IMG/VR virus record: IMGVR_UViG_3300047325_000170
Span: 1 to 64,000 of that record
DNA from: a virus
Reading direction: 5' to 3' (one strand)
DNA: 64,000 bases
In this document: piece by piece, positions 514 through 64,000 of the stretch
Numbering within the stretch: position 1 is the stretch's first letter
Layout: each line of letters begins with the position of its first letter
The notes under the pieces: model-generated
The model's input: the letters and a program-made list of their open reading frames with translations, nothing else
Told to the model about the DNA's origin: nothing
Databases searched by the model: none
Program-made: the position numbers and the translations under genes

Positions 514-514
514 C

Positions 515-1147: not shown

Positions 1148-1168
1148 ATAAACCTATTGCCTTCGGGG

Positions 1169-2254: not shown

Positions 2255-2256
2255 AG

Positions 2257-2457: not shown

Positions 2458-2502
2458 TTAGTTTACCTCGTTTGAGCTTACAAGTCTACCTACTTACAGG
2501 TA

Positions 2503-41098: not shown

Positions 41099-44000
41099 CT
41101 AGGTGCGCGTTGCGATATGGATGTGGGCACCGGTTCCACGATCAATAAACATGATCGTGCCATCTCCAACATCGGTCCCTGCGGGGGTCGTCAGTTCAGC
41201 GAGCTGGCCCGCATCGTAGTAGCTGTTCACACCGATCTGGGCGACATTGTATCGTTCGGCGAGACGAATGAGTCGCAGTCCAGCCGGAGGGGTTGCGGCA
41301 ACATTAATCATCGGCCCACCGTTCTCGCTGACGAGACCGATATCGATGGCCTGTCCCTTGTAGTGATAGGACCCCGTCCCCGCCCCGAGATCTCCATGGG
41401 AACGTGCTGCTGCTGCAGTCATATAGACCGAGATGCCGTTCTGTGTGAGGAAGTTTAAGAAGGAGATGATGTCATTGCTGACACCTTGGCTTGGCGGGGC
41501 GGTCTGTTGTGTGAGGAGCTCGGTCATAATCAGTGAGCTTTCCCATTGGTGCTTACTGATAATGGCCATACGCGAGGACGTGCTGTAGCTGGTTCCACCG
41601 CTAAGAAAGGTGACGGGATTGGCAACTGACCCGCTCTCCGTTGGAACAGCGATGCCGGCAACCGGAGCAACAATGACCGATTGCGCGGGCGAGGCTGTCT
41701 CTAAGCCCTTTGCGAGGGTGGCATGAACCATGTCTCCCCGTGGCTGAATGGCCCCCAATTGACGGAGCTTCTCTTTGTCCGCGTCACTGATCGTGAGCGA
41801 CGTATCTCCGGGGAGGGCAGCCTGTAGGACAACGGACTCCGAGTGTCCGTTCAGGCCTGCTTGAAGTTCCGCCCCGCGATACTTGAGAAAGACCATGACA
41901 AGGGAGGTCTGGTCGTCCCAGTACCGTGAGATCGCAGTCCATGCGTACCCAAAGATAATCTGGAAGATGACGTTCGCCGCAAGGCCAATGGGATTGAAGC
42001 ATGAGATGATGCGGGCTTCCATGAGGATCGGGAAGAGCTCTGCAGCGAGTCCTGCAAGGCGCCCACCGGCGACGGCGAGATCTTCGGTGACTACAGCTTG
42101 GATGCTCTTCTCACCGACTTGCCCAAAGGCATCAGCAAGGATCTCGGTGAGATCAGCTCCCGCGCCAGCAAGGGTCTTCGAGGTGAGGGTCGTTGACTCG
42201 CGGGTGAGGAAGTTCAGGACGCCGCGCTTGGCAATGACTTCCGCCGCGGTCCGGTTGACTGCTTGATCGAATGTCCCGTTCGTGAAGTTCAGGAAGTTCT
42301 TGGCAATGGCGTCCTTGATAGCCGCATCGAGGATCTCTTCGCCATTCTCGTCGATAGCTTCGGCAAGAACTTCGTTGATGATCTGGGCGGCTGTCTCACC
42401 GGAGACTTTCTCGACGCCAGTCTTCCCAAAGATTGACCGTGTCTTACTGACGGCATTGCTGATGTTCTGGGCGAGTTGCTGGTACTCGCTTGCAGTGGTT
42501 CCAAAAGATGATTGCACGGAGGTCGAGACACTTGTGCTTCCGGAGAGAACACGATTGAGCCCATCGAGGATGAGGTTGCGGATCTGATAGGTGAGGAAGC
42601 GGGGTTTGAACGTCGAGACCGCTTTGCCTCCGATCTTTAGTTCGTAGCCAGTCGGGGGCGGTTTGCTGCCGCCCTTCAGAAACGAGAAGATCCGCTGGGT
42701 GATGTTCTGCTTGGTGACCTTTACGCCAAAGTTGAAGAGTGACTGAGAGAATTGCTTGGTCCCTTGACACAGGGCCCACTTTGCTCCCAAGAGACTGACC
42801 ACGTCCGCCGCAAGGTAGCCGCCAAACCAGGCCCACATCGAGCTCCAGTAGTTCTCACCCTTTACTTCGCAGAGCATGTCCGGCTCAATCGAAGTCACAT
42901 ACCCGACATCGAAACCGAAGTGATGAGTGACCTTGCGCACTCCGCACAGTCCTCGCACGTCCGTGTAGGTGTCGTTGAGGTACATGATGTCGTAGGGCTT
43001 GACTGTCGGATCTCCAAGGACAAGCACCTGCCCTTGGTACATGAGCTTTTGGTAGTCACGCAAGATCGCGCGCGCCATCTGGCGCATGTTCTCCTCGGTG
43101 ATCCAATGCCCCATGCCGCCGGCAATCGAGAAGTCGGTGCCGGGGATCCCGATATTCTCTGCCCAGTAGCCGACAAGGTCGAGCCCCAAGCTCCCGATAA
43201 TGGCCGCCTTGGTTGGCGCAACGTCGAGACCAAGGACGTCGGTGTTTACAATCGCTGTCTTGCGGAAGGCCGAGGAGATCTGCCGGTCAACGGTCTGATG
43301 AACAGGCTTGGGCGTCGGGCGTGAGGACTGATAGCCCTGGCCGTTGTACCACATGGCAATGACGTCCGTGTAGGTCTCTTCGTCTGAGGCACGGATCGTG
43401 TTCGTTAAGAGGTTAGACGTTGAGCCATAGTAGTGGAACTGGCAGAAGGTCTTGGTCTTGTAGCCGACCGGGTAGCCGTAGAAGCGATCAAGCCCCGGGT
43501 CCGCTTGCCCGAGATCGTAGGCGGAGACGCGCTGGTAATCATAGCGGAACTGATAGTAGGGCGCTCCAAAGAAGAGGGTCGAGCGGTACTCGAAGGGCAC
43601 GACGGCCGCGACGTAGGGCGGGAAGTATTGTGCCATCGTGGAGATGACATCCCAGCAGGTCTTGTTCTTCGTGTACATGTTGAAGGTAATGCCCGGCGGG
43701 TGTGGGCCCATGAGTTGCGTCTGTCCCACGTCAGGGAGAGGCGGCGCGTCAAACTGTCCCGAGCTGGGATTGAACCCACCCTGGGCTGCCTTCGCTTGAA
43801 CGTTATCGATAGCCGTCTTTACACTGTAGGGATTGGCAATGACACCAGCGGCTTGCTGCGCAAAGTAGTTGACGCCAACTGCTGATGAGAAGCTGCCAAC
43901 TTCTCGGAAGAACTTCGAGAAGGGGGTGTAGATCGAGTAGACGTTCTCGCAGGTCTCACCGTATCCCGATGGGATTCCTTGGTTGAGCATGTTCGCGGTA

Positions 44001-47000
44001 TTGCCGACCAGAGCAGCCGCGATGCCCGCAACCTTGTACGTTTCCGCAAGCTTCGGTTGCCCTGCCGCTCCCGCAACCCCCGCCGCCGTTGTAAGACCAG
44101 CCTCGAGTAAGCCACCCGTAAGAAAGTTGATACCGGCGAGGGAGGCTTGGTACACATAGTCGGTCAGGGTCTTCGAGGGATTGGTGAACGGCGCCACCTT
44201 CCGGTAGGCGCTGATCTGCTGGGGCTGATTGATCACGTGCGTGTCAGGGTCGAGAACGTCGATGCCCTCAGGTCCATTGTCACCAATTGCGTCCCAGAAC
44301 TGGAAGAGGTAGGGGTTGCCGAAGTGGCTGATACCAATGGGGTTCTCGGCCCATGCGCCGCCTTGGCTTGCACTATAGATGTCGTGCTTGATGAGGTTCC
44401 AGAACTTCGTCCCAAGACTGTAGTCGTAGAGCTCTTCGCCGTGGGAGTTGAGCATCTGCCCAATGATTTCACGTGGCTCGTAGGTGAGATCCATCATCTC
44501 ACCGGTCGGCGCCTGACCGTGCACGAGACGGTTCCCATCAGCAAGGAGTCCCGGAAGGAAGCCGCGGTCGGGTCGGTTGATGGAGTTTGTCTCGGATTCG
44601 GCAGAGGGGATCAGCTTCGTGAGCTCGATTCCATCACCAACTGCGATGATCTGCACCCGCTCGCCGAGACCGACCTCCGCAATACGTCCATTGAAGAGGA
44701 CCGGGAATTTGGCGCCGTTTGAACCGTAACCCATGCGGATGTGGACGCGCACGCCTGGCGCAAGCATGACCTGACCTTGCTGCTTCTTGCGCTGTTCAAT
44801 TTGCTGCTGAACGACACTGTCCGTCCCGAGCAGCAGGCGGATCGGGTTGACGAATCCCTCGACCCAGCGATTGATGTTGTTGCGGATGTCGTCGGTGGCC
44901 GCAAAGACCTCGCCCATGTTGAAGCTTACTGCGCCCTTCGCCACGCTGAGTGCGGCAGTCCCGAGATTGCTGAGAACCGGGATCGTATCTCCGTTGTAGT
45001 TGTAGAGCGCTGAGAGCATATTTGCGCTCAGCTGGAACTGCGTGTAAGACGAGAGATTGCCGTAGGTGTTCATGATCTCAATGATGGCGGTATGCATCGG
45101 ATCCCGGCGATCATTGATGATGTCTATGGATTGGATAGCCTGGAGGGCATAGAGATTCGGCATGAGGTTTTGCCAGCCGATCTTCGGGCCTTCGTCCATG
45201 AGCTGAAAGACGTAGGTGGGGTAGGCTTGAACGAGCCGCCCCGTCATGTCGTGTTCCATAAGATCCCGAAGCATGGCGATCATACGCCCATGTTCGTCGA
45301 TCTGCTGTGAACCAACATCGACGGGATGGTGACTCTGAAGCGCCTGATTCAGGTAGGCTCGCGGGTCCTTCCCATCTTTTTTCTGTCCTAGGATCTCTTG
45401 TGCGGAGTCCTGGACCGCCGCCGGAAGTCCGGGGATTTTCAGCCAGGATGCCGTCCCGTAGTTCCCGGCATTGACACCATAGCTATTTTCTCCCGGGTGG
45501 GTAATCTGGACCGACTGCCCGTCGACCTGAAGCGTCGCTTGGTAGTTGCTTTGCTGCGTGACCGTGGGGGTAAACTGATTCGTAGCCGTTTGGGTGCCGT
45601 TGTTAATGGTCGGCATCGTTAGTGAGCCAACGAGATTGGTGTGGCCGCGCTGCGGACCTGATTCCCAGGCAGTCGACGGCCGCCCTTGATTCGTATTGTC
45701 GCTACCGGGTGCTGCCTCGGGAGCCGTTGCGCCCATCGCCTGAGGATCAACCCCGTAGAGACCGCCCGCCGGATGCTCATCAAAGAGAGACTGCCGAACC
45801 GCTTCGCTAACGGAGCCAGTGATGTTGAGAGCGATAGTTCCGTTCTGGTTGAGGGTGGAGATTTGGCTCGCGACCTGAGCAAGGTACGATGAGGTAGCCG
45901 CTCCGAGGGGGTTGATCGGAATGTTCAGCTTTTCGGCGAGGAGCTCGTTTGGGTAATCGATGTAGAAGTCAGGATCGACGAAGCGACCCTGGTCAGTCCA
46001 ATACTCCCAGCGCAGTTGCTGCATGGCGAGCTGCGCCTGTGCCTCACCGAGCTGCGATGGGTCGAAGATCTCTCCGTTCTGAAGAGCTGCCTGGATACGC
46101 TCGAAGGTCGGAAGCTCGAGGTCAGGATAGAGCTCGAGGTAGGCCATCTGTTCTTTTGCTTCCTGAATAGGCGCAGCCGCAAACCACGCATTGACCGGCC
46201 GACCGGTTGTATCGAAGCCATTGTTGCCCTTGTCACCGGTTGGTTGACGGGGGTCCTTGGCAGGGTTGTAGTCGTTGATATAGCGCTGCCAGAAGACATA
46301 GCGCGGATCGGTCCCGGCGCTGATGGGTCCAACTTCGCCCGAGACCCCTGAAGGCAACTGCTCGTTGATGAGCTGGGGCAGGAGCGCTGCGCCCTTCACG
46401 GCTTCAATACGGCGTTGATGACGCTCGAAAGAGATCATCTCAATCGCGACGGTAAAGATGTTGGGATAGCCCTCGACGGGTTCCGACACAATGTTCGTGA
46501 AAACGACATTATGCACGCCCATAAGGGAAGCGATCTCATTCTCAAAGCCAACAAAGCCGGCAACGAGTTCATAGCGTGCCTCGCGGGCATTGGTACGAGC
46601 GTATTCAACCATTGCCCGCACGGAGTCGAGTGCCGCGAGGGTCAGTGCGGTGAAGGTAACGGTGAAGCGAACTTCGCCCCCTCCCATGTGTTGGTAGCCC
46701 GGCGTCTCATTCGCTGGAGAGCGCACCATCACAAATGAGTTGTTGATCTCGGCCGAGATGCCGGTCATGATCAGGTCGGGTGTATCCCATGGACGCATCC
46801 GTGCCTTGGCGTCATCGGTGAAATTGGTGATTTCAGCGAGAAGGTTCTCGAGCGCTTCGTAGATCGAAAGCTTCTCACTCTGTGGCAAGATCTTCACCGC
46901 ATCGCTGAGGGCATAGGTCTGCCAGCGGTTGTACTGATCGTGAAGATCAGAGAGCCCCTTCAGCCATGCGCTGTCGACAACCGTGAATTGAAACTGGGCT

Positions 47001-47794: not shown

Positions 47795-47818
47795 CCAGGA
47801 AGCAGATCCTTTACGGGG

Positions 47819-50800
47819 CTACGAGCGGCCTTTCAACTGATCACTCGCGTCCTTGTCACGGTCGCGGGTCGTGCGGCGTGCGTCTTGCATATCGACGTTC
47901 ACCTGGGCCCCAATGGCGTTGCTGATCCCGGCACGGAGCGCTTCGGGGCTTGACATGTCCCCGTTCCGACTTGCACGTACCTGGATGTTGTAGCTCTGGG
48001 CCGAGCCACCGGTGTCGTTACTCATGACGCGGGTGCGGCCGCCCGTTGGGGGCTTGGGCATCTCGGGGGCGTCGCGGATCTCCCCGCTCTGTCCGAAGGT
48101 CACGGCTGCGGTTGCCAGGGCGCCTGCGCCAAGGCCGGCCATGACCCAGGGGTTCCGGAGTTTCTCCATCACCCCGCTCATTGAGAGCTTCTTTGCTATT
48201 TTAGCACCATCTTCGACCATTGAGCTAGCGTTTTGGGTGACCGGGGCCGAGATCATGTTCTCGGTGAGGTCCTTGGTCTCGGGCAGCACGGACTCTGGGA
48301 TGCTTGCCCCGATCTTGGGTTCGGTCAGAGCTTGGCTTGCTGCCTGTGCCTCTTGCATGCGCTCTTCGGTTGTTCCGGCGGCGTCGATAGCCCCACGTCC
48401 AAAGATCCGTGAGAAGATGTCAACCGCGCTCCGGCCGACTTTCTTCCCTGGGTTGGTAATAGTGCGCACCCAGTCCCCGGCATTCGCTAGGTCAAGTGGC
48501 CCGGCGCCGTTCTTCATGGCGGCTTGAGATTTCCAATTGACCGGTTCGGTAAAGGATTCAAACCAGGAGATCTCTTTGCCCCACTTGTCAAATTTCGGTT
48601 CCGCAGCCTGGCCAGTTTTCACCATGTCTGTGAAAGCCTTGAGGGCTTGGTACTTCCAGATATCCTTACCGGCTTCCATGTCCTCCTTGGCGCCCGCAAG
48701 GAAGTACTTGTCCATGTAGCTATCAACGTTCATGGAGCCAGCGCTCGTTTGCAGCAAGCCGCTTTTTTTGTCATAGAGGTCCTGCGTCTTGTCGATCACC
48801 GATGCTCCCGCCACGCCCGGGACACTCACGGGCTTGCCAACCGACTGCTGTTGAAGGAGCGTGGTGAAAGCGTAGGGGTCAAACTGATTGCCGCCCTTCA
48901 CCTTGAGGAACTCTTCACGAATGATGCCCGCGCCGGTATACTGCAGCGCTGCTAGCTCTCGTTCTTCTGGACTTGCTGCGGTGTTCTTGATCGTGTTCAT
49001 GAGCCGGTCTTGGATAGGCGTCGTCACCGCTCCGATGAGACCCTGCGCACTATCAACCTCGTGCTGCTCGAGGATCCTCTCCATCGTGCTCATCTTTAAG
49101 ATTGGGAGATTGGTATGATAGTAGTTCTCAAAGTTGGCGAAGAGCTCTGCTGTTTTGGGCAGGTTCGCTTTGATCTCTTTAAGGGCGGCTTCATGCCCTT
49201 CCCACGCTGCAACCTTGGCCGTCCATGCCGATTCGAATTGCCCGTGCAATTTCTGCATGATCGCCCGATTGATTTTCGTTCCCTCAAGCATGCCGGCAAG
49301 GACAACACGGACCTTGTCACCGTCCGAGTCACCATAGAGTGCCTTACGCAGACTGTCATGAACGTAGAGGCCAAATCCCTTGATGGTATCGTCGACATAG
49401 ACCTTTGCGCCCATACGACCGTAGATCGCATTGGGGTCGCGGTGCACGGTTGCCCAGAAGAACTCTTGTCCCCGCTCGTCTTTCAGCAAGCTTTGGCCCG
49501 GGACAGCGCCGATTTGTTTAGCAAACTCCCGAGAAACCTTGGCGCTGAAGGGTTGGAAGGACGCATCGTCCGCCCAGAGGGACTGCTGAAGGGGTGCCTT
49601 TAAGAAGCCCTTCCCGCTGAAGTCGAGGCTCTTGTAGAGGTTGTTAAGGAGACCCTTCTTGCCCTTGATCTGCGTTGCAAGCGATTGCTGGTAGGACTCA
49701 ATAGATTTATTGAGATCATCCAGGTGGGCAAGATTCTCAGGATCGATCCGAGCGCTGAGCGCAATCACGCGGTCGAGGGCGCGTTGCGATTCGGAGGGAC
49801 GGTAGCCACCGCCCTTTACGTCGGTGAGATCGGGGATCTCATCGGGGGCGTAGAGCCGCCGCCCGTTTCCAATATCGATATACTGTGCGCCACGCCCATA
49901 GCGTGCGAGGTATTCGTCCTTTGAGAGGACGTTCTTCGGTGCTTGTTCGCGTAGGGCGATCTGTTCGGCGGTCATTTCTGTTGCGCCGGTCGCATTCCCG
50001 AATTTCATCGGATTTTGGTTGGCTTCATACGCAGAGAGGTATTGGTGGAGCTTGTAGGCTCTCTTCTGAGTGGTCGGGTTAGCGAGGTAAGAGGTCTTGA
50101 GATTCTCAGCCTGGAGAAGGAGACCCTCAGCCTCGTAGGCCTTAATGTCAAAGGCCTGCATACCGGCTTCGTTCCGCTTGGGATTGAGGCGTTTGTGCTT
50201 TGCGTAGAGCGCTTCTTCCGCTGTCATGTCCGTCGTGGGCGAAGGATCATTGATGACGCGAGTGGCCAGCATCGACTGTTCATACTGCACGCGGTAGCGG
50301 TTCCCGCTCCGTGAGGTGAAGTTGGTTGTTTGGAGTAATTCCATGCCGCCGCTCGGATCGATCTTCTGTCCGAGCTCGTTCATCATGCGCTTCGCTTCAA
50401 GGGCCTTCGCCACGTTGGTCTCATCAAAGCGATGTTTGCCGGAGATCGCTCGGTTGACGACGTAGCCATTCTCGATGCTGAACTTCATACCGAGACCAAG
50501 CTGATCGAAGATCTCCTGCAACCCTTGTTGAAGAGCAAGGGCCTTCTGGGGATCCTTGCCAGCCCGCGCCATCATCATATTCATCTGACCGCGGACGAGC
50601 ATGCCTGCGCCTTCGTGCTTCTGGAGGGTCTTCACGAGTGGGACGCCAGAGAAGATCTTGACGAAGTCATCGTCCCAGGTCGTTTTCCCACCGTTGATGA
50701 CGACGGTGTTCTTCGACATATCGGCCATGATCTTCATGTTGTGAAGATTGGCCCCGGCCCCGAAGGCCTCGTTGATCTCGGGCTTCGCGATGGCCTGTTG

Positions 50801-53557
50801 TTCGTAGGCCCCCATCACCTGCATCATCTCGTCGGTCCCAAGAGTACGGACAACATTCCCCGCCTCGTCGAGCTCCTCGCCGCCAACGATGAAACCCATG
50901 CCGACATTGCGCTGGTAGGTGGGGTCTGCGAACTCCTTCCCGAGGCGGGACTCTACGCGTTGGAACTGCGTCATCGCAATCTCGTCCTCTGAATTGCGCA
51001 GGGGCACGGCATTGAACTCTTGTTGTGGTCGCGCCCAGGGATTACCACCGGGGACCACGTCTTGATAGATCGCCGCTGCGACGGGAGATCCCTGACGGCC
51101 CGCCTTATTACCAATGATCGCGAGACCCTCGACCCCCTGTCCGGGAGCGGAGCCTTGAATCAGCCGCGTGCGAATCCGCTGCAGTTGCCGGTTCTTGACG
51201 GACGTATTTGAGCCGATGGTATTGAAGATGCGATTTGCAAAGCTTCCCTCGAAGCCGCCTCTTTCATCCTCTTTGTTTAAGAACTTCTCTTGAACTGTGT
51301 CTCCGCCGGCGCTTTCATAGAGGGCTTTTGCAACGGCATTACCTTCCTTGGGTTCGATACGTCCGTCCTCTGCATTTTGAAAGAACTGCCTGAAGAACTT
51401 GTCGCGGTTGATGCGACTCTTATCGGTTGTGGCAAAAGCATAGATTGGATTGATTGTCGACTCTGGCAAGAGCAAAGCATTATGAACGAGGAGTTGTTCT
51501 TGTGTCTGAACGGCCGACGCGGAGATAGCAATCCCGGGATCCTCGGCCGTGGCATCAAGGACGCCCTTCCCGAGCTCAGACGTTGCTTGGTCAAAGAGTC
51601 CCATGTCGAGTTTGCGGACTGCGCGCTGCATGCGGCGGCCGACCGATGCGAACATGACTTCGGTGGCTGAGAAAACATGGAGTCCGCCTTGGATGCGGTT
51701 CTGCGCCGCAATCTTTCGTGCCTCGGAGTAGTTATTAAATGTCTCCGGTCTGACATGAACTGTCTGATATTTCAGTCCTTGGTTGATGAGCTCGTTATCG
51801 TCGAGGAACTCGCTTCCCCGGCCCGATTGCCGTAGGACGAGGTCACTGACGCCAAGGTACTGGCCGATATATTTGCTCCCGCCGGCCGTTTGGAAGACAC
51901 CGTTGACGTCTTCAACGGGAAGGAAGAACTGAGCGGCCCCGCCGGTTCCTTTTGAGATGGCAGCGTTCTCGTGGGGAGCAATGTGAACCCAGACACCGAA
52001 TCCTTGGCCACCGCCCTTGAGAGGGTTCGACTCTTGGAAGGAATAGGAGACCTTCCACTTCGCTGCACGCGGGACCGATTTTCCGTCCTTCTGCTCAAAG
52101 CTTTGAAAGAACTTGATACGTTCCTGAAGATAGTCGAAGGCGGCTTCACGGTTTCCGCCGATGTTGCCGTTCCCGAAGGCGACGATGCCTGTTTTCTTCT
52201 CAAAGGTATCAAGGGCCCGAAGCCGCGCGCGTACATGGGCGGCTTCATCGAACTCATTGACCTTGCCGGTCCACACTTTCTTGCTACCTTCTTGCTTCAT
52301 CTCGAAGACTTCGCGTGAGGTAAGCTGCGCGATGTGGGACTCAAGACCACCGGGGATCTCTTCCGTACCCATCTTGAGGCCCATATGCTGGCCTTGTTGT
52401 TCAAGGTTTTCAAAGTGCCGGCGGAAGAAGCCAAAGGCTCCCTCTCCGGTGAAGGCTTCGCGCCGTAAGACATCCGCCCCGTGGGGCATGCCAAGGCCAT
52501 TCACTGAGGTTTGCATCGCCTCGAGAACAGGGTTCATAAAGCGCTGCCACATCTTCTTGCGCAGAGCAGCGCGCATCGCTGGATGCTGGGCCGGATCTCC
52601 CTTGATCCGGCCATTCTTTACCAGTCGTTGCCATTGGTTCTCAAAGGCGGTCTCGAAGGTGTTGTAGATTGCCCGGCTCATCGCTACATTCTGGGGAGCG
52701 ACGAAGCCCTGCATCACCCGGTTATAGAGGCCCTGTGCATCCTTCGTGTAGACGCCGCCGATCCCGCGACTGCGGATCTTCGGGACGATCCCGCCATCGT
52801 CGGTTGTGACCGATCCGCGCTCGAGCAGTGCCTTGAAGCCGTCGGGATTGAGGAATTCGTGGGGCGACTTCTCATCATTCGTCACGCCACTGAGGGCCAT
52901 CATCGTGCGCTGATGAGTCATGATGAGATCCTGGAAGCGGATCTGGCGCGCGGTCGCCTTGGTCTGTGCCATGTTAAACATGAGCTGACCGACATCTTCG
53001 GGGTTCATGGTTGCAGAGAAGCTCTTGCCAAGCTTTCCTATGGCGCCCTGGGGGACGATGTTCATCGCCACCTGTCCGCTCTCGGTGAGCGAGGAGCTAA
53101 CCTTATAGACTCCAAACTGCTTGGTCAACTCGGGGTCCATGAAGCCAGCAGCACGTAGAGAATCCGTCATGACGTAATAGCCAGAAGGAAGCTCACCTTG
53201 CGCGATCTTGGCAGCGGTCTGAGCGCCGGCTGTTTTCATCTCCTCAAGGCGTCCCGCAGCATTGGCGGCCCTCTCCGCCTTCGTCTCGGGAGTGAAACGG
53301 AAGTCACGTAAGGCAACTCCCATGTCCATGTCGCGGATCTTCCGCCGCGCCGAGGTGAACTCAGGGAGATCCTTGGTGGAGGGAACCTTTGTGATCATGG
53401 CTTGCCAGACATTTGTGCCGCCCTCTTTAACAAACTTCCAGAGGTTTGCCGTCGCCAGATAGCCGCTGCCCCGCATCTTCATATAGACCCCACTCTTGGT
53501 GGTGTCTGCGCCTTGGGCTGGAGCGTAATTCTTAACTACCTTGTCGTAGAGAGACAT
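47819..53557 (-). CDS. Putative single-chain virion RNA polymerase (two-barrel, beta'-like catalytic core)
   Basis: 1912 aa with colinear beta' motifs SLATQIKGKKGLLNNLYKSLDFSGKG, VHRDP (R1373) and YGDSDGD (D1410/D1412/D1414; nt 49316-49333). Confidence 0.8.
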   Translation of the reverse strand: MSLYDKVVKNYAPAQGADTTKSGVYMKMRGSGYLATANLWKFVKEGGTNVWQAMITKVPSTKDLPEFTSARRKIRDMDMGVALRDFRFTPETKAERAANAAGRLEEMKTAGAQTAAKIAQGELPSGYYVMTDSLRAAGFMDPELTKQFGVYKVSSSLTESGQVAMNIVPQGAIGKLGKSFSATMNPEDVGQLMFNMAQTKATARQIRFQDLIMTHQRTMMALSGVTNDEKSPHEFLNPDGFKALLERGSVTTDDGGIVPKIRSRGIGGVYTKDAQGLYNRVMQGFVAPQNVAMSRAIYNTFETAFENQWQRLVKNGRIKGDPAQHPAMRAALRKKMWQRFMNPVLEAMQTSVNGLGMPHGADVLRREAFTGEGAFGFFRRHFENLEQQGQHMGLKMGTEEIPGGLESHIAQLTSREVFEMKQEGSKKVWTGKVNEFDEAAHVRARLRALDTFEKKTGIVAFGNGNIGGNREAAFDYLQERIKFFQSFEQKDGKSVPRAAKWKVSYSFQESNPLKGGGQGFGVWVHIAPHENAAISKGTGGAAQFFLPVEDVNGVFQTAGGSKYIGQYLGVSDLVLRQSGRGSEFLDDNELINQGLKYQTVHVRPETFNNYSEARKIAAQNRIQGGLHVFSATEVMFASVGRRMQRAVRKLDMGLFDQATSELGKGVLDATAEDPGIAISASAVQTQEQLLVHNALLLPESTINPIYAFATTDKSRINRDKFFRQFFQNAEDGRIEPKEGNAVAKALYESAGGDTVQEKFLNKEDERGGFEGSFANRIFNTIGSNTSVKNRQLQRIRTRLIQGSAPGQGVEGLAIIGNKAGRQGSPVAAAIYQDVVPGGNPWARPQQEFNAVPLRNSEDEIAMTQFQRVESRLGKEFADPTYQRNVGMGFIVGGEELDEAGNVVRTLGTDEMMQVMGAYEQQAIAKPEINEAFGAGANLHNMKIMADMSKNTVVINGGKTTWDDDFVKIFSGVPLVKTLQKHEGAGMLVRGQMNMMMARAGKDPQKALALQQGLQEIFDQLGLGMKFSIENGYVVNRAISGKHRFDETNVAKALEAKRMMNELGQKIDPSGGMELLQTTNFTSRSGNRYRVQYEQSMLATRVINDPSPTTDMTAEEALYAKHKRLNPKRNEAGMQAFDIKAYEAEGLLLQAENLKTSYLANPTTQKRAYKLHQYLSAYEANQNPMKFGNATGATEMTAEQIALREQAPKNVLSKDEYLARYGRGAQYIDIGNGRRLYAPDEIPDLTDVKGGGYRPSESQRALDRVIALSARIDPENLAHLDDLNKSIESYQQSLATQIKGKKGLLNNLYKSLDFSGKGFLKAPLQQSLWADDASFQPFSAKVSREFAKQIGAVPGQSLLKDERGQEFFWATVHRDPNAIYGRMGAKVYVDDTIKGFGLYVHDSLRKALYGDSDGDKVRVVLAGMLEGTKINRAIMQKLHGQFESAWTAKVAAWEGHEAALKEIKANLPKTAELFANFENYYHTNLPILKMSTMERILEQHEVDSAQGLIGAVTTPIQDRLMNTIKNTAASPEERELAALQYTGAGIIREEFLKVKGGNQFDPYAFTTLLQQQSVGKPVSVPGVAGASVIDKTQDLYDKKSGLLQTSAGSMNVDSYMDKYFLAGAKEDMEAGKDIWKYQALKAFTDMVKTGQAAEPKFDKWGKEISWFESFTEPVNWKSQAAMKNGAGPLDLANAGDWVRTITNPGKKVGRSAVDIFSRIFGRGAIDAAGTTEERMQEAQAASQALTEPKIGASIPESVLPETKDLTENMISAPVTQNASSMVEDGAKIAKKLSMSGVMEKLRNPWVMAGLGAGALATAAVTFGQSGEIRDAPEMPKPPTGGRTRVMSNDTGGSAQSYNIQVRASRNGDMSSPEALRAGISNAIGAQVNVDMQDARRTTRDRDKDASDQLKGRS

Positions 53558-56500
53558 TAGGCCGCCTGCTGAATCTGCATGTTCACTTGATGTTGCTGAG
53601 CATTATTGGGATAGAGCTGGATATCGATATCGCGAAGCCCCATACCATCGAGGACGCGATGGAGGTTCGCTTTGATGTTGCCGGGGGTCTCGCGGAAGGG
53701 ACGGATGTCTTTGATCCCAAGCTCACTGACTCGCTCTTCATCCTGCGGCCAGAAGCCTTGGGAGGTCATATCGAGACCCTCTTGCTTCGTGACAACCAGA
53801 CGGTAGTCGTCAAGTGAGTTCTCAGCCTGCCAACCATTCCAGTCCGCGGGCGGCAGGTAATGGTGCTTGAAGTACTCGATGAGTTCTGGCTTCTCATCGA
53901 CCTTTAGGCCATAGGCGGCTTGCAAGAAACGGCGCTCGTTCTTGGGCACCATCTTGAGGATCTCTTTCCGCTCAGGCCCCGGGGCCTTGAGGAACGCCTG
54001 GAAGAACTCACGCTCCTTGGGGTCAAGTGAGAGCAAGACCTTTTGGAGATCGCTACCTGGCTTCGCACCATAGAGTGTCGTCTGCGCGACCTGACGATAC
54101 TGGATCGCAAGGATATCATCACGGGTGAGCTTCAGCTCCTTGCGATAGGACTGCAGCTCGGAGATCTCTTGGTTGATCTCGTGCAAGCGCTTCGCTTGCT
54201 TCTTCTTGTCGCCCTTAATGATGATGCGCCGCTTCTCTTGCCGTAGTTGGGAGATGCGGTGCTTGCGATCATCGCCTTCGCGTTCGTAGCGGTCGATGAT
54301 CGCGCCGATGTCTTTGTGCTCATGTTTGAGAACGTAGGCGCGCGTCTTCTCGTAGAGCCCCTCGTACTTCATGTACTTAAGAATGTCGAAGTACTCTTTG
54401 GTCTCGCGCTCTTTCTTACGATACTCCGGTATGGGATCTTGTGACACCTTATGGCTGAAGGCAAGCGCGCCGGCAATCGCCATCGAAGCACCCATCAAGA
54501 TGGCGCGCGACTTCAACTGGATCTTCCCAAGCTTGAAGCCAAATTTGGTGTTGGGGAGACGCTCAATGAGCTTCCCGCCGTAGAGGGGGCCAACCCCGAG
54601 GAAGTACCCGATAGCACCGGCAACCGCCATACCGGCGATGCCTTGTGCGGCAGCTGATTCAAACGAGGGGAAGATGTAATCCCGGAAAGGGTGCTTCCAG
54701 TCTTGCCAATCCTTACCGTAGACTTGCGTACGCTTATAGAGTTCGATAGGTGAGTCAAGGGCCATGTACTTATTGTGAAGCAGGGTGATCGGCAGGTGCC
54801 CAATGCGCTCAAGGGCTCCGGCCCAGGCGATCTCGTTGCTCGTGTACTGTGCATGCATACCAGCGGGCGAACTATCTTGGGTCTCTGAGCCGTAGTCCTG
54901 ATCGATAGCTTCGCGGTTGAGCATCCGCCCATGGCTAAAGACGACAGCGTGGATGGTGTTGAGGGTATCCTTCGAGACACGCTGCGCTTGATCGTGAGCA
55001 TAGCCGATCTTCACCGTACGCCCCGGCCCGAGATTCTGGCTGAGCCAGGTGGTCGCATCGGCATCGCTGCGGACGTGAACACCCGCAAGGCGGATCGGAT
55101 TGTCGGGGTGCTCGAGCGTCGTGAAGGTATTATTGTCGATCATCTTATCGATATGGACGGTCTCATAGTCGAGCTGTGCATACCGGAGATGATAGGGTGC
55201 CATCGTTACGCGGTGCTTGCGCTGCGTAACCTGTTCCTTGACGGTCTTGATGCGTGCTCGATCTTCGTCGGAGAGGACGCCTTCGGGGAGATGCACGAGA
55301 TAGTCGCGGTAGCGCCGGTACTGTGAGGACCAGGGCGCCACATCACCGAGGATCTCGAGCTTCGTGACATCATCGTAGAACTGGCCTTGGCTCCAAAGGC
55401 CTTCTTTCGTCTCCTTGGCGATCTGCTTGCGGACATCGTCGACCTTTGCAATCGTCTTATCGTAGAGATCCTGATCGAAGGTCAGCTGCGCGGAACGCTG
55501 CTCATTTGGATTGTCGCGGTTGACGTAGACGATGCCGCCCTGCTTTGCGCCAAGCTCGGCCATGTCCAGGTTGAGTTGTTCGCGATGGCGTGCATCAATC
55601 GTGTCATGCAGTTCGCGATAACGCTTCTGCGAGAGGGTGTGGATCTCAATTGGGTTGCCGTCCTTGGTGACAAAGTCGACGGTTCCGGAGATCCCAAGCT
55701 TCTTGTCATCGTAACTGACGTCACGCTTGCCACCCGGCGACTCGCCGAGAAGCTCATGCTTGATCTTCTCATGCAGCTCTCCACCGCGTTCAGCGATTTC
55801 CTGTGAGTAGGCATAGAAGGGCTCGTGGTCTCCCGTTAAGAGTCCATAGAGTCCGTCGCGAGAGTAGCCGATCTGCGTGCTGCGTAGCTTGAGGTCCATG
55901 GCTGGTATTCCATGGAGTTTCTCGTAGGCCGCACCTGGCAGGCGCGCTTCACCGTTCGGGATCGTGACATAGGGGTCGCCGTGGAGGAAGTCGAGGAAGT
56001 AGGCGGGGTCTTCACCGCCCTGCCCCGGCAACCAGGTGGGCATTGTATTCCGGATCGGATTGTATTCGGTGTTGGAGTGATAGCGGTGGGGCAGGAAACG
56101 ACGGAAGGCTTCTGAGAGCCCCGGTGTCGGCAGCATGCCGCCGGTGTTCCAGTTATCCCAGTACTGCCGCTCGAACGAGGTCATCCGTCCTGCTGATTGC
56201 AGGGTCGGCAAGTTGGAGTAGGGATAGTCCACGGTGCTCGCCGCGGCGAAGCCGTAGATACCGCCGATTTCCGTTAAGGAGTAGTAGCCAAGACCGGCCT
56301 GATAGCGTGGATCGTTGGGATTGATGAGTCGCTTGAGGGAGCGGGGATCATTCGGATCCTGCGACTTGAAGAGCCCCGGCGCTTGCGTGCCTTCGAGCAT
56401 ACGCCCCGGCGTGAAGCGCTGCGCTGCCTTGAGCTTCTCGTTGGACTCACGGATCTTTTGGCGTGTCTTCGCCTTGGCCGAACCGTAGGGCGCAATCGCC

Positions 56501-58743
56501 CGCGCACCCTTCCCGTAGCTGCCGCGCTGGACGCCTTCGTCATAGCCCGCATCGCTGTCGTCAGCGTCGTCTTGGGTATCGTCATTGATCGCAGCAATCG
56601 CCCGATCAGAACCGGGCAGGCCCACCGCGCCCATCGGCAGGATCTGGCCCGAGGCGGTGACAAAGCCGGTGAGTTCTTGGTTAGCAGCCTTTTCTTTGAT
56701 TTGCTCGTTGAGGGTGCGAAGATCTCCGCGGTACTTGGGATTGCGTTCGCCCTGGTGGGGGCCAGAGATCAAATACGGAAGATCCTCCGCATGCATGTAT
56801 TTCGTCGGCTTGAGGATCGGGCCGAGAATTGGGTTGAGGAGGGCGCCCCAGGGTGAAGTGGGCTCAAAGAGCGGGGCGGAGATCGGATAGGGGCGGTCCT
56901 TGTAGTGCTTCTTCTCGTAGTGATAGCGATCAAAGAGGAAGTGCTGCGCCCAACTGAAGGGATGCGTCGGTGTGGGGAGGGCGGCATTAGCGTAGTATTC
57001 ATCAACTGAACCGAAAAGGGTGTCGGTCTTGGTGATGTCGCCAGCTAAGGCTTGACGATGAGCATTGGGAGCAAAGTACTGGATGCGCTCGCCGCGGAAC
57101 GGCGTGCTCGATCCGAAGCTCCACCAGCGGCCCTTGCGGACCGGGACATAGCCACTGTCCTGTTGCTCCTTGAGTTCCTCTTGGCTGAGGCCAACCTTCG
57201 CATCGACGAAGGGGTGGGCGATGTGAGAGAGGACACCGCCGGAGAGCTCATCGACATGCTTGAGCCACGGACTGATCCCAAGCTTGTCCTTAAGTCCCGC
57301 CCACCAGAGCTCACCCTTATCCTTGGCGAGCTGTGCTTGATCGGTCGGGCGGCGCCCCATGAGCTTGCCGAGTTCATCGTTGAGATAGCCTGCGTAGAAG
57401 ATCCCCGCCGCGATAGGCAAGGCCCGCTTGAGCATGACATTCGCAAAGTAGGCGGTCGGACCCTTAAAGGCTAGCTTCCCGAGCTTGAACTCGGTGGATG
57501 ATCCCGACATCGCAAGCCATGGGAAGAGGCCATTGTAGGCCATGCCCGTGTTGATACGCTCGAGGAGATGATAGGCGGCAAAGGTGCCGGTGTTGATCTC
57601 GGTTCCGCGGGTTGCCCCGAAGAACATGTTCTTGAGACCAGTGGGCGTGAACTCCATGGCCCGTGCCACCCCGAAGGGCAGCTGATCAGCAAGGCGTCGT
57701 GCCTCGGGAAGATCCTCGACTGCAATGTTTCCGAAGCGGGACTGCCAGAACTTCTCGCGGCCCTCTTTGCTCCAGATTGCCGCGCCGCGCTCATTGAGGC
57801 CAACGTCGAAGAAGCGTTGCGCACGAGCTCGTAAGCTGGTGTTTCCGGGATCGCGAATCGCAGCGATCTTCTCGAGCTTCTCATTGAGCGTCTCAAGGTT
57901 GAAAAGCCGCACCCCTTCTTCCTGAGAGATTCCCCGCTCTTCGCGGATAACATCTCCCCGGATCCTTGAGATGAGTTTTTGATTGCGACTAATGCGAGCA
58001 TGGATATTGCCGACATCATAGCTCTCGCCGAGGAGATCGCCACGCATGCGCTCGATGGCGTTCTTCTTCTCGCCAATCCCCGCCTTACCATAGAGCCAGT
58101 ACTTGCCTTCAATGGTATGGATCTTGCTCCACAGTAGCTGTGGAGGCGCCCCTTCGCCCGGGCTATCAAGAAGGGCTTGAACGACGTGAACCTTACCACC
58201 GACGAAGTAGGCACGGGCGTGCTCTGAGATCCCGCGCTTCTGGAGTTCTTCAGGGGTGAGGAGGCCGAGCTTGCCGATTCTCCCGAGGGCTTGGAACTGA
58301 GAGGTCGACTTGCCGGCCGTCCCATACATCTCACGGAGTTCAGGACCGAAGGCGAGCTTATCGGCGATCTGGAGCGGCAGGAAGGTCTGAGACGCTTTCT
58401 GCCACGCGGTCATCAGCGGCGAGCGGCTAATGAACATCCCCAGGGCATGGATGCTATTGGCTTCAGGGGCCTTGCCCTGCAGGTGGTTGTAAAGGAGATT
58501 GGTTTCGATGGTCCGCCGCTGCATGGCACGCAGGGCAGTCGTTTGCTTCATCCAGCCAGGTGGCGTGAAGGCGAGGCCGCCCTGTTGGAAGGCGACCTGC
58601 ATCTCCGCAGCAAGGGTCTTATCAGCCCACGGCTTGAGGCCCTTGCCCAACGCAAAAAGACCGCCGACAGTAGCTGCTCCGGTGAGGAGCGAACGGCGGC
58701 GGTCGTCTTCGCTGTTGGGGGGGTTGTAGCCGTACTCAGCCAC
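53557..58743 (-). CDS. Tape-measure-like protein with embedded Cas4-like PD-(D/E)XK and SNase-like domains
   Basis: 1728 aa immediately after the tail chaperones. Several Gly/Ala hydrophobic helices. GISGTVDFV...IEIHT...EQLNLDM and IDKMIDNNTF...IRLAGV...LNREAI segments. Confidence 0.65.
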   Translation of the reverse strand: MAEYGYNPPNSEDDRRRSLLTGAATVGGLFALGKGLKPWADKTLAAEMQVAFQQGGLAFTPPGWMKQTTALRAMQRRTIETNLLYNHLQGKAPEANSIHALGMFISRSPLMTAWQKASQTFLPLQIADKLAFGPELREMYGTAGKSTSQFQALGRIGKLGLLTPEELQKRGISEHARAYFVGGKVHVVQALLDSPGEGAPPQLLWSKIHTIEGKYWLYGKAGIGEKKNAIERMRGDLLGESYDVGNIHARISRNQKLISRIRGDVIREERGISQEEGVRLFNLETLNEKLEKIAAIRDPGNTSLRARAQRFFDVGLNERGAAIWSKEGREKFWQSRFGNIAVEDLPEARRLADQLPFGVARAMEFTPTGLKNMFFGATRGTEINTGTFAAYHLLERINTGMAYNGLFPWLAMSGSSTEFKLGKLAFKGPTAYFANVMLKRALPIAAGIFYAGYLNDELGKLMGRRPTDQAQLAKDKGELWWAGLKDKLGISPWLKHVDELSGGVLSHIAHPFVDAKVGLSQEELKEQQDSGYVPVRKGRWWSFGSSTPFRGERIQYFAPNAHRQALAGDITKTDTLFGSVDEYYANAALPTPTHPFSWAQHFLFDRYHYEKKHYKDRPYPISAPLFEPTSPWGALLNPILGPILKPTKYMHAEDLPYLISGPHQGERNPKYRGDLRTLNEQIKEKAANQELTGFVTASGQILPMGAVGLPGSDRAIAAINDDTQDDADDSDAGYDEGVQRGSYGKGARAIAPYGSAKAKTRQKIRESNEKLKAAQRFTPGRMLEGTQAPGLFKSQDPNDPRSLKRLINPNDPRYQAGLGYYSLTEIGGIYGFAAASTVDYPYSNLPTLQSAGRMTSFERQYWDNWNTGGMLPTPGLSEAFRRFLPHRYHSNTEYNPIRNTMPTWLPGQGGEDPAYFLDFLHGDPYVTIPNGEARLPGAAYEKLHGIPAMDLKLRSTQIGYSRDGLYGLLTGDHEPFYAYSQEIAERGGELHEKIKHELLGESPGGKRDVSYDDKKLGISGTVDFVTKDGNPIEIHTLSQKRYRELHDTIDARHREQLNLDMAELGAKQGGIVYVNRDNPNEQRSAQLTFDQDLYDKTIAKVDDVRKQIAKETKEGLWSQGQFYDDVTKLEILGDVAPWSSQYRRYRDYLVHLPEGVLSDEDRARIKTVKEQVTQRKHRVTMAPYHLRYAQLDYETVHIDKMIDNNTFTTLEHPDNPIRLAGVHVRSDADATTWLSQNLGPGRTVKIGYAHDQAQRVSKDTLNTIHAVVFSHGRMLNREAIDQDYGSETQDSSPAGMHAQYTSNEIAWAGALERIGHLPITLLHNKYMALDSPIELYKRTQVYGKDWQDWKHPFRDYIFPSFESAAAQGIAGMAVAGAIGYFLGVGPLYGGKLIERLPNTKFGFKLGKIQLKSRAILMGASMAIAGALAFSHKVSQDPIPEYRKKERETKEYFDILKYMKYEGLYEKTRAYVLKHEHKDIGAIIDRYEREGDDRKHRISQLRQEKRRIIIKGDKKKQAKRLHEINQEISELQSYRKELKLTRDDILAIQYRQVAQTTLYGAKPGSDLQKVLLSLDPKEREFFQAFLKAPGPERKEILKMVPKNERRFLQAAYGLKVDEKPELIEYFKHHYLPPADWNGWQAENSLDDYRLVVTKQEGLDMTSQGFWPQDEERVSELGIKDIRPFRETPGNIKANLHRVLDGMGLRDIDIQLYPNNAQQHQVNMQIQQAA

Positions 58744-58755
58744 GTAGGAAGTCCT

Positions 58756-59502
58756 TTACGATCTGTTCTGTTTGAGACTTGCCATCAGTTGCTGACGACG
58801 TTGTGCTTTCTCGAACTTTGGTAGGACTTCACTGAGCGGCTTGAGGGCTGCTCGATCTGCGCCGTCGATGACCCCGAGGGTTGATCCACTCTCGTCGGCG
58901 ACCTGTTGATTCTTGTTGAGGCGCTCTTGAAGTTCGGCCATGCGTTCTTTGTTATTGAGGCCACGCGGTGGCTTGATTGGTTTCTCTTCTTCTTTCTTAC
59001 TCTGCTGGATCTTCAGCCCCGGCGTCGTCGCTTCAAGGATCCAACAAGCCCGTGCATAGGCATCGAAGAGTTGATCGTGACTCCAATCACTGTAGCGGGC
59101 GAAAAGCCCCCCGCCATCAAAGGCATAGTCGATCATCGTCTCCATCTGAGCTTCAAAGTCTTCAACGATACGCCCCTGGTAGAAGCCGAGGCGTCCTTCC
59201 ATATCGATGATGCCGGAAGAATTGAGGACCTGAGCGCAGATAGCATCCGGTACACCGGCCGGTCCATCTTGGACTGCGGGGGCATCTGCCTTCCATCCCT
59301 CGGGCCAGAGGAGCGTTGTCTCGCAGACTTCTTCGGCGCGTTCGAGCTCGTCTTCGATATGAATAATAGCTCGGTACTCACGCCGCGAGAGTCGCCGGTA
59401 GATGTAGATCTGCTCGACGTGCTGGAATAAGAAAATAGCCCCGTAGTCAGCAATCCAACTACGGAAGCGTTCCTCCGGCGGCGCTTGCGGCGCTGCCTCC
59501 AC
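58756..59502 (-). CDS. Tail assembly chaperone 2
   Basis: YIYRRLSRREY...TLLWP...AGVPDAI...VLNSSG; paralogous to the upstream gene and located between the tubes and the tape measure. Confidence 0.7.
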   Translation of the reverse strand: MEAAPQAPPEERFRSWIADYGAIFLFQHVEQIYIYRRLSRREYRAIIHIEDELERAEEVCETTLLWPEGWKADAPAVQDGPAGVPDAICAQVLNSSGIIDMEGRLGFYQGRIVEDFEAQMETMIDYAFDGGGLFARYSDWSHDQLFDAYARACWILEATTPGLKIQQSKKEEEKPIKPPRGLNNKERMAELQERLNKNQQVADESGSTLGVIDGADRAALKPLSEVLPKFEKAQRRQQLMASLKQNRS

Positions 59503-59505
59503 TCC

Positions 59506-59982
59506 TTAGAGCTGAATGCTCTCCGCGACGGGTTGGAAAGCGGAGTAGGCATAGAACTCTTGCATCACGACTTGGACAGCACCGGCCGGCATGTTCTGCA
59601 ACACGGTGCGGTCCGAGCAATCCGGGAAGAGACAGATCTTCGTGAAGAGGGTATCTTCGCGTTGATCGGGATCTTCGATAGCGGAAATAAGCTTCTGAAC
59701 GGCCTTCCACTCAAGGCGCGTCATCGTGCGATAGACACATCCACTGCCATCGGCGAAGAGCACGCAGAGCACCTTGCTGTGAGGATACTTAAGCTTGATT
59801 TCCTCGACCTGAGAGCGCGTGGGGCCGCCTTCATAGAGAGGCTCATCCTGACCGAGCGTCTCAAGGACGCTGGCGGTCTTCGGTGGCTCTTCGGCAACGA
59901 CGGGGGCAACGACGGGGAATTCTTCAGCGAAGGGAATTGCATCGAGGGCAGCTTGCTGTTCGGCGGTTAACTCTTCAGACAA
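59506..59982 (-). CDS. Tail assembly chaperone 1
   Basis: VYRTMTRLEWK...ICLFP...MPAGAV...YSAF; synteny. Confidence 0.7.
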   Translation of the reverse strand: MSEELTAEQQAALDAIPFAEEFPVVAPVVAEEPPKTASVLETLGQDEPLYEGGPTRSQVEEIKLKYPHSKVLCVLFADGSGCVYRTMTRLEWKAVQKLISAIEDPDQREDTLFTKICLFPDCSDRTVLQNMPAGAVQVVMQEFYAYSAFQPVAESIQL

Positions 59983-61364: not shown

Positions 61365-61400
61365 GGCTCATCCTAGAGGTGGAGCTAAACTACGCTAGCC

Positions 61401-61434
61401 AAAACAAAGAAGGGAGAGCCGAAGCTCTCCCTTC
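61401..61434 (-). terminator. Rho-independent terminator after the major tube gene
   Basis: Minus strand GAAGGGAGAGC-TTCG-GCTCTCCCTTC-TTTGTTTT: 11-bp stem, cUUCGg tetraloop, U-tract. Confidence 0.9.
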
Positions 61435-61465
61435 CAGAGTATCACAAAAGCGGGGTCTTTGCCAG

Positions 61466-62236: not shown

Positions 62237-62289
62237 GAGTCATACCTCTAGATAGAGCTACCTGAGCTCCAGGTTCTAGCACTAACCTA

Positions 62290-63969: not shown

Positions 63970-64000
63970 GTCACTCTCTCCTTGAGAGGAGATCAACAAA

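Follow-up and report, generated by a model that had tools for sequence, protein, structure and literature searches.

The window analysed in the present study comprises 64,000 nucleotides (positions 1 to 64,000) of the IMG/VR viral record IMGVR_UViG_3300047325_000170, which is 111,160 bp long and estimated to be about 70% complete. All large genes of this record lie on the minus strand. Between positions 41099 and 58743 there are three consecutive giant open reading frames (ORFs): P0001 (1728 aa; 53557..58743), P0002 (1912 aa; 47819..53557) and P0003 (2231 aa; 41099..47794). A sequence-only reading of this DNA had singled out these ORFs as a trio occupying the tape-measure position, one of them carrying nuclease-fold domains and another an RNA polymerase. 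All three were found on the minus strand with the lengths and coordinates given in that reading, the stop codon of P0001 and the start codon of P0002 overlap as TAATG at 53557, and the identification of homologues for each of them indicates that they are genuine genes rather than chance ORFs. Our analysis revealed that P0001 and P0002 are the first and second genes of a tape-measure slot resembling that of Bacillus phage 0305phi8-36 (P0001 is a homologue of its gp145, and P0002 lies in the position of its gp146), and that P0003 is, from its sequence relationships, a baseplate hub protein. The RNA polymerase was traced to P0002, in which a catalytic module was recognised from a conserved motif and a fold model.

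The catalytic signature of P0002 (49316..49441, minus strand), identified by its conserved motif and spacing, consists of R1373-D-P and, 37 aa further on, D1410-S-D-G-D1414. It is located 74% along the protein and forms part of its best-conserved stretch (H-R-D-P...G-R-M-G-A-K...Y-V-H-D-S-L-R-x-A-L-Y-G-D-S-D-G-D). Each of the five homologous clusters spanning this stretch retains DxDGD, one of them reading NADFDGD and another LADFDGD, and the DSDGD of P0002 is the sole DxD[GA]D among the ORFs of at least 150 aa in the 111-kb record. The distance of 37 aa between the Arg of R-x-P and the first Asp compares with 35 in the beta' subunit of Escherichia coli (R425 to D460), 38 in gp96 of the Thermus phage P23-45, and 38–40 in the relatives of the slot protein from Firmicutes.

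A single-sequence AlphaFold2 (AF2) model of P0002 was unusable (predicted local distance difference test score, pLDDT, of 36). The model of residues 790–1660 based on a 9-sequence alignment reached a mean pLDDT of 53, with 202 residues above 70, and showed a mixed alpha/beta architecture. When this model was compared with the PDB using Foldseek, all of the top 50 matches were RNA polymerase largest subunits (best match 7s01_d, E-value 7.8e-4), which came from phage AR9, bacteria and yeast Pol I. Alignment with VIA-align (root-mean-square deviation 2.5–7 over 82–251 aligned residues) gave long matches of 206–251 residues, with Z scores of 6.5–7.0, to the clamp and barrel of Rpb1, A190, beta' and the AR9 and phiKZ enzymes, and the matched chain ranges include the catalytic loops of those polymerases. 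Together, the two programs point to a clamp-like connector followed by a beta'-like double-psi beta-barrel (DPBB-A) within residues ~1182–1452 (49202..50014, minus strand), the barrel itself corresponding in VIA-align to residues 1315–1452. The case for a polymerase is thus a combined one, built on the motif, its spacing, its conservation and the uniformly polymerase character of the fold matches.

A candidate for the second barrel (beta-like, DPBB-B) may be placed at residues ~886–1100 (50258..50902, minus strand), where the AF2 model is rich in beta-strands and where K942-x6-K949 is found within a conserved K-x-M-A-D-x-x-K-G-T block. In both protein families a K-x(6-8)-[KR] motif is present 468–601 aa upstream of the Asp triad. 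A search of the ESM Atlas with residues 860–1130 yielded no usable match. On the other side of the barrel, about 90 aa past the triad, the model contains a long helix with a conserved A-Q-G-x-I-G (residues ~1490–1525; 48983..49090, minus strand), to which an A-R-x-G...I-G...N block runs parallel in the Firmicutes relatives; this helix is a candidate for the bridge helix. In the part of P0002 after DPBB-A, where two-barrel polymerases have their bridge helix and trigger loop, a conserved I-R-E-E-x-L-K-V-K at residues 1546–1554 also stands out. The best fold matches in BFVD were a siphovirus "minor tail protein" (A0A8S5SD80; 4.9e-6), an unnamed protein, a protein of Acinetobacter phage ME3 (1.6e-5) and a protein of Microcystis phage MaMV-DC (A0A075BUT7; 1.3e-4), with giant-virus polymerase subunits only after these. 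The modelled fold hints in this way at tail-linked polymerase modules outside the 0305phi8-36 lineage.

When 1.84 billion representative proteins were searched exhaustively with HMMER, only six clusters of P0002 homologues emerged, four of them full length (1854–2208 aa), with identities of 22–39%. No relative was found by tblastn in 50,697 phage records and no match in Pfam or PHROGs, nor did the PDB sequences match either the single protein or a 7-sequence profile; a word-based profile search returned the query alone. No metallopeptidase domain was found in P0002. Profile comparison (hhalign) of the P0002 family with the slot proteins of Bacillus cereus phage WH1 and Bacillus australimaris phage KLEB27-3 gave a collinear alignment of 192 columns ending at the triad (E-value 0.0035). 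The comparison with orf99, the separate YonO/RdRP-like polymerase of 0305phi8-36, was not significant, and that of the family core with residues 1–1200 of P23-45 gp96 produced an E-value of 0.14 and no collinear match. Taking this value together with the position of the motif, we conclude that P0002 would work like gp96 while standing outside its sequence family.

The signature is carried by the slot proteins of seven phages and phage-like plasmids, and it is located 68–79% along the full-length proteins. The WH1 protein reads R-Y-P-T...K-A-D-H-D-G-D, and that of KLEB27-3 has the same pattern with Y-D-G-D. The plasmid-borne counterparts have R-Y-P-S...G-D-F-D-G-D (BtI1/pBTHD789-2 of Bacillus thuringiensis), R-E-P-T-F-H...N-A-D-I-D-G-D (pCBJ of Clostridium baratii) and R-Y-P-T-F-H...K-A-D-S-D-G-D (a partial ORF on a Paenibacillus urinalis plasmid); ME3 shows the variant D-H-D-Q-D. 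The proteins of WH1 (gp095) and KLEB27-3 (gp034) are annotated as structural. Among the relatives examined, only gp146 of 0305phi8-36 (L001:14624-22237) lacks the Asp triad, the alignment showing a gap at that place, and among these same relatives orf99 (L003:12027-15683) was detected by tblastn only in 0305phi8-36. Judged from these sequences, one polymerase looks to have been replaced by another in this phage. Iyer et al. 2021 list orf99 as the only entry for 0305phi8-36, and Hardies et al. 2007 treated gp146 purely as a tape measure (PMC2147016). The record analysed here contains, within its 111 kb, no homologue of orf99, no match to PF05183 and no other ORF with DxD[GA]D. In the Moorella phage MTATph1 the slot gene (L008:17741-25097) is apparently split by a transposase insertion: CDS0027 is devoid of the C-terminal tail, and the 313-aa CDS0031 contains a hydrophobic helix and the tail.

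These comparisons bear on the view that P0002 is an ordinary tape-measure or ejection protein, whose barrel is a dead relic or serves not in transcription but in some other transfer of nucleotides or handling of DNA, for instance in priming or as an anchor for DNA pulling. Such a view agrees with the failure to find a second barrel or to match any RNA polymerase family by sequence, with the modest fold scores, with the DHDQD variant of ME3 and with 0305phi8-36, which keeps a slot protein without the motif, so that this protein has a function independent of catalysis. It accounts poorly for the retention of the Asp triad in 12 of 12 divergent proteins from distantly related hosts, with R-x-P at a fixed spacing, or for the finding that the one phage without the triad has a separate polymerase; the promoter-like motif that precedes small genes of this phage (see below) also speaks against it. 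We consider a non-polymerase role of P0002 unlikely.

P0001 is clearly related to gp145 of 0305phi8-36 (31% identity, E-value 1e-123 in tblastn) and has homologues in at least 86 clusters. As the sequence-only reading had proposed, nuclease folds are found in one protein of the group. A PD-(D/E)xK (Cas4-like) domain at residues ~957–1122 (55378..55875, minus strand; phrog_1706, E-value 1.7e-10) is an insertion common only to P0001 and gp145, and is absent from the counterparts in WH1, KLEB27-3, MTATph1 and ME3. It is followed by a staphylococcal nuclease (SNase)/thermonuclease-like domain at residues ~1193–1285 (54889..55167, minus strand), which is kept across the gp145-like family and was recognised by comparing a 62-member profile with staphylococcal nuclease chains (E-value 0.003). 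In the former, the aligned catalytic Lys is replaced by Arg and the Tyr of QxxxY by Asp, and in the latter the equivalents of the Ca-binding residues D40 and E43 are not evident in the alignment; P0001 thus has nuclease folds, but its nuclease activity is doubtful. According to precomputed Pfam assignments, other gp145-like proteins contain Hint/intein, LAGLIDADG, SNase or Vsr-like domains. A search of the ESM Atlas with P0001 residues 380–960 gave no usable match.

With its close partner, P0001 could also be imagined as one half of a split polymerase, in which P0002 would supply the beta'-like barrel and P0001 the beta-like barrel, the co-ejected pair assembling afterwards. This idea is favoured by the TAATG coupling and by the fact that the two genes are always neighbours, as it is by the helix, the tail and the absence of Cys common to both proteins, the recovery of P0001 and P0002 homologues from contigs of equal size, and the occurrence of inteins, which favour conserved catalytic proteins, in gp145-like members. 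In the PDB, the 62-sequence P0001 profile nevertheless matches staphylococcal nuclease alone, with no beta/Rpb2 chain of an RNA polymerase among its matches, and the assignment of P0001 as a beta-like subunit was dropped as unsupported. Moreover, conservation of the P0001 family is good in 0305phi8-36, a phage in which the active site of the partner has been lost, and P0002 has its own conserved beta-rich region with K-x6-K upstream of its barrel. A polymerase divided between the two proteins is therefore quite improbable, and P0002 as the polymerase, with P0001 as a companion protein, remains the preferred reading.

The resemblance between P0001 and P0002 extends to their C-terminal parts. 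Both families contain a Gly/Ala-rich hydrophobic block, which is followed by a conserved tail resembling two beta-strands. The Gly/Ala-rich hydrophobic segments reported for the three giant proteins in the sequence-only reading were all located (P0001 residues 1368–1385, Kyte-Doolittle 1.68; P0002 residues 1802–1822, 1.45; P0003 residues 1935–1952, 1.76), and the similarity it had noted between the tails of P0001 and P0002 proved real and conserved in the matching proteins of relatives. In P0001, two such helices were assigned by Kyte-Doolittle analysis at residues ~1368–1440 (54424..54642, minus strand) within a block conserved in five relatives, and the tail (G-L-x-D-I-x-I...V-N-M-x-I; 53560..53676, minus strand) is conserved in gp145, MTAT_26, WH1 gp096 and KLEB gp033. 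P0002 contains a glycine-zipper-like helix (N-P-W-V-x-A-G-L-G-A-G-A; 48092..48154, minus strand), located about 390 residues beyond the polymerase module and conserved in gp146 and in the family members with a C-terminus, and a tail (S-Y-N-I-Q-V-R-A...V-N-V-D-M-x-D-x-R...Q-L-K-G-R; 47822..48010, minus strand) kept in all family members. Both tails were found in the counterparts from 0305phi8-36, WH1, KLEB27-3, MTATph1 and BtI1 and in all metagenomic homologues. The tail is the only part of P0002 that aligns with gp146, the alignment being limited to the last ~100 residues (the tail of WH1 gp095 matches at 3.6e-7). The same C-terminus-only pattern was described by Hardies et al. 2007 for gp146 and BtI1 (PMC2147016).

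Neither P0001 nor P0002 contains a single Cys, and this also holds for the metagenomic homologues P0004-6, P0008, P0013 and P0015 and for the P0001 and P0002 counterparts of 0305phi8-36, WH1, KLEB27-3, ME3 and BtI1. The pCBJ slot protein is likewise free of Cys. The gp145-like protein of pCBJ (L013:8791-15753) has 8 Cys, all of them at residues 707–1095, within an insert of ~400 residues that is absent from P0001; the insert is annotated as LAGLIDADG and its first Cys follows a conserved W-x-L-G block, like Cys1 of an intein, and it is read here as a putative intein. Cys makes up ~0.64% of the residues of the other virion ORFs of the window, and at this frequency the calculated chance of finding none in 1912 residues is ~5e-6. 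The hub proteins have 4–10 Cys (10 in P0003). A similar division is seen in well-known tails: the lambda tape measure gpH (0 Cys in 853 residues) and P23-45 gp96 (0 in 5002) are Cys-free, and lambda J, L and K have 11, 8 and 6 Cys, respectively. By composition, P0001 and P0002 thus seem to behave like tail-lumen proteins and P0003 does not. If this is correct, the total absence of Cys could serve as a simple bioinformatic marker for proteins that travel through the tail tube.

P0003 matched phrog_20474 with an E-value of 1.2e-142, and tblastn identified it with the hub proteins of six distinct phages (eight database records): 0305phi8-36 (gp147), KLEB27-3, WH1, Edson, MTATph1 and ME3. The best PHROG stretch (residues 1370–1642) marks a hub domain of the T4 gp27/XkdQ type at residues ~1370–1654 (42833..43687, minus strand), where Pfam gave a YQBQ-like match below the cut-off (E-value 0.081); a gp27 domain has been described in gp147 (PMC2147016). 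Hydrophobic helices are present at residues 1906–1952. The C-terminus has a putative LAS-type zinc-peptidase motif (S-x-H-x-x-G-x-A-x-D...H-x-H, residues 2142–2226; 41117..41371, minus strand), which was read from the sequence and has no match in Pfam or among PDB sequences. P0003 can therefore be described, by homology, as a gp27-like baseplate hub and not as cargo.

This result affects two proposals of the sequence-only reading. The assignment of the trio to the tape-measure position stands for P0001 and P0002; P0003 is the hub gene that comes after the slot, and the length-measuring function would be shared by P0001 and P0002. The notion of three cargo proteins has to be abandoned for P0003, a gp27-like hub with a peptidase motif and cysteines and without the shared tail. 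That notion came with a likeness to the three giant ejected proteins of crAss-like phages, with which the trio indeed has in common that all three proteins are giant, adjacent and equipped with hydrophobic helices, and that one of them holds a DxDxD polymerase, as does crAss gp66 (PMC10770324). The homology of P0003 to gp27-type hubs, its 10 Cys and its lack of the shared tail argue against a single ejected set, and so does the location of the genes, which are flanked by tail chaperones and baseplate genes in a phage with a sheath and are not part of a head/muzzle module. Furthermore, crAss gp66 (6VR4) is not among the fold matches listed, which still leaves room for a similarity. Since crAss-like phages are podoviruses that store their cargo in the capsid, they provide the wrong precedent, and P23-45 gp96 fits instead; an ejected crAss-type trio is very improbable. 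We return, then, to P0002 as a polymerase that is probably delivered through the tail together with P0001.

The genes flanking the trio support this assignment of positions. PHROG and Pfam matches define the order: tail sheath, two tube-like paralogues, two chaperone-like paralogues, P0001, P0002 and P0003, followed by a small ORF, an SLT transglycosylase, gp25-like and gpJ-like baseplate genes and then large virion proteins. The tail sheath gene, which runs off the window end, and the two tube-like paralogues occupy 60714..64000 (minus strand; phrog_16991 "tail sheath", E-value 5.9e-67; Pfam Phage_sheath_1C), and the positions of the latter correspond to gp140 and gp141 of 0305phi8-36. The two paralogous tail-chaperone-like genes (58756..59982, minus strand), directly upstream of P0001, both match phrog_29362 and take the place of the "tail chaperonins" gp143 and gp144. 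The small ORF after P0003 is at the position of the gpV-like gp148. The whole order equals that of ORF139-151 of 0305phi8-36, in which gp145 and gp146 are annotated as virion proteins detected by mass spectrometry (gp146 also as "hypothetical tape measure"), gp147 as a baseplate hub with wall-degrading domains and gp148 as gpV-like. Synteny with related phage genomes, which the sequence-only reading had suggested as a check, was thus confirmed for the sheath-tube-chaperones-P0001-P0002-hub order in 0305phi8-36 (ORF139-148). The arrangement of three giant genes also occurs in WH1, KLEB27-3, MTATph1 (interrupted by a transposase) and ME3, and it recurs on large plasmids, in B. thuringiensis (BtI1) as well as in C. 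baratii; the P. urinalis plasmid has the first two of the giant genes at least. On sequence grounds, the window carries the tail module of a jumbo phage with a contractile tail, a relative of 0305phi8-36, and the three giant genes make up the tape-measure and hub segment of this module.

Several further genes of the record deserve mention. A 358-aa sheath paralogue (phrog_16991; minus strand, at the equivalent of 64082-66085) lies upstream of the main sheath gene and is placed like the sheath paralogue gp137 of 0305phi8-36. The baseplate/fibre region of the window includes a 2038-aa ORF (27475-33591, minus strand) with no PHROG or Pfam match. A 3306-aa ORF (genome 70251-80171, minus strand), for which we found no Pfam match, no tblastn match in phage records and only two weak PHROG matches, was considered as an alternative tape measure and rejected on position, since it is located between the head and sheath genes. 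Primase-like and DnaB-like helicase genes are found at window positions 1-4859 (minus strand), i.e. at the start of the record. The replication genes are probably in the missing ~30% of the genome, where any further polymerase would also be expected.

Outside the window, the analysis revealed a set of candidate early promoters. Of the 18 plus-strand copies of the motif YCACG-N5-6-AGDGG, 17 are clustered within genome positions 100,216-110,270, the expectation being ~4 copies for both strands of the whole record. Each clustered copy precedes small ORFs and is located ~10 nt before a GGAGG-type ribosome-binding site; in many cases a hairpin resembling a terminator, with a T-rich run, comes immediately before the copy. 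The ends of the motif, CCAC and GTGG, are self-complementary. From their sequence and placement, these sites are candidates for a phage-specific early promoter set, which P0002 might recognise.

Given a polymerase active site in a gene of the tape-measure slot, it is probable that this phage uses its tail to inject a polymerase of its own. We infer the virion location, ejection, membrane tethering, polymerase activity and promoter use of P0002 from the features described above, and they can be arranged into the following scheme. P0001 and P0002, both Cys-free, would be loaded in extended form in the lumen of the tail tube, with their C-terminal tails docked on the hub P0003. On contraction of the sheath they would be expelled ahead of the DNA, and their hydrophobic helices would insert into the cytoplasmic membrane. 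The polymerase module of P0002 might then refold on the inner side of the membrane and transcribe the first-entering genes from phage-specific promoters, possibly helping to pull the genome in.

Several observations weigh against this scheme. The second barrel has not been located in P0002 and its candidate region has no fold match, hence only half of the active site has been demonstrated. No link from P0002 to gp96, orf99 or any RNA polymerase family was found in Pfam, among PDB sequences or with hhalign. The quality of the AF2 model is middling, Foldseek gave no E-value better than 7.8e-4, and the maximum Z score of 7.0 falls, taken alone, within the range that VIA-align calls common. Contigs from viruses, metagenomes and genomes were scanned for the genomic context of the closest P0002 homologues, with alignments or one protein at a time, and no relative was recovered. 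The "structural protein" labels of WH1 and KLEB27-3 are the depositors' annotations, and the part missing from the ~70% complete record could hold another polymerase or tape measure gene. Finally, a folded polymerase cannot fit in the tail tube, which makes it necessary to assume unfolded storage. With these points taken into account, we still regard a tail-delivered RNA polymerase, accompanied by P0001 and the hub P0003, as the best explanation of the whole and as probable, if some way from certain.

A broader proposal, which we advance tentatively and think more doubtful than the delivery of a polymerase by this phage, is that contractile-tailed phages and phage-plasmids throughout the 0305phi8-36 lineage use a two-protein entry machine housed in the tail lumen. 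It would consist of a Cys-free, membrane-anchored polymerase of an unrecognised two-barrel family and a coupled partner that binds DNA or has a nuclease fold, and would start transcription at short phage promoters while the genome is entering. Among the members of this lineage are prophages carried on plasmids of B. thuringiensis israelensis and C. baratii. If the proposal is true, injected tape-measure polymerases are an ancient, widespread strategy and not the curiosity of one Thermus phage. Judged by the distribution of the signature, the tape-measure-slot polymerase appears characteristic of a lineage that is old and widespread; the signature occurs in growable isolates (B. cereus WH1, B. 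australimaris KLEB27-3 and Acinetobacter baumannii ME3) and on large plasmids resembling phages in Bacillus, Paenibacillus and Clostridium. If correct, the finding would explain how transcription starts in these phages, add a deep-branching family of two-barrel polymerases and bear on the fate of the myovirus tape measure after contraction.

In the literature searched, the slot proteins are not called polymerases; gp146 of 0305phi8-36 goes only by the name of tape measure, and the others carry the labels hypothetical or structural in database records. A full-text search combining tape measure with two-barrel or double-psi found no other report, its coverage being incomplete and a prior description possible. 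The supplementary survey of Chaban et al. includes neither 0305phi8-36, ME3 and WH1 nor any Microcystis, Moorella or Acinetobacter phage.

Among known systems, the fusion of a tape measure with a virion polymerase has so far been shown only in P23-45-like Thermus siphoviruses. According to Chaban et al. 2024, P23-45 gp96 is a tape measure fused to a virion two-barrel polymerase, which transcribes the pre-early genes and is proposed to work at the tape-measure pore during DNA entry (PMC10770324). Like P0002, gp96 is a giant protein of the tape-measure slot with R-x-P...DxDGD (at 38 versus 37 aa), a transmembrane-type segment, no Cys and no Zn-binding clamp motifs, and for each of them the proposal is ejection through the tail followed by transcription of the first genes. 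P23-45 differs in being a siphovirus with a 5002-aa protein, the polymerase of which is N-terminal (motif at 16% versus 74%); P0002, in contrast, belongs to a contractile tail, has 1912 aa and is preceded by a second tape-measure-type protein, P0001. Also, the 111 kb of the phage studied here revealed no further polymerase of the non-virion kind. What is new in the present case is, accordingly, (i) the different sequence family, (ii) the contractile tail, (iii) the C-proximal position of the polymerase and (iv) the coupled partner protein.

Phage 0305phi8-36 (Thomas et al. 2007; Hardies et al. 2007) shares the gene order, with gp145 resembling P0001, gp147 resembling P0003, and the helix and tail of gp146 resembling those of P0002, but its gp146 is without the Asp triad and it has the separate orf99. 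The polymerases of crAss-like phages and N4 are similar to P0002 in residing in giant proteins injected for early transcription; these phages differ in being podoviruses with storage in the capsid and no tape-measure context, and neither enzyme is among the fold matches listed. The N4 enzyme is T7-like and not of the two-barrel type. Finally, lambda gpH and T4 gp29 share with P0002 a slot after a chaperone pair, a near-C-terminal hydrophobic segment, a conserved C-terminal end and (gpH) the absence of Cys, but they are almost wholly helical and contain no polymerase, whereas here the architecture is mixed alpha/beta and two such proteins are encoded in tandem.

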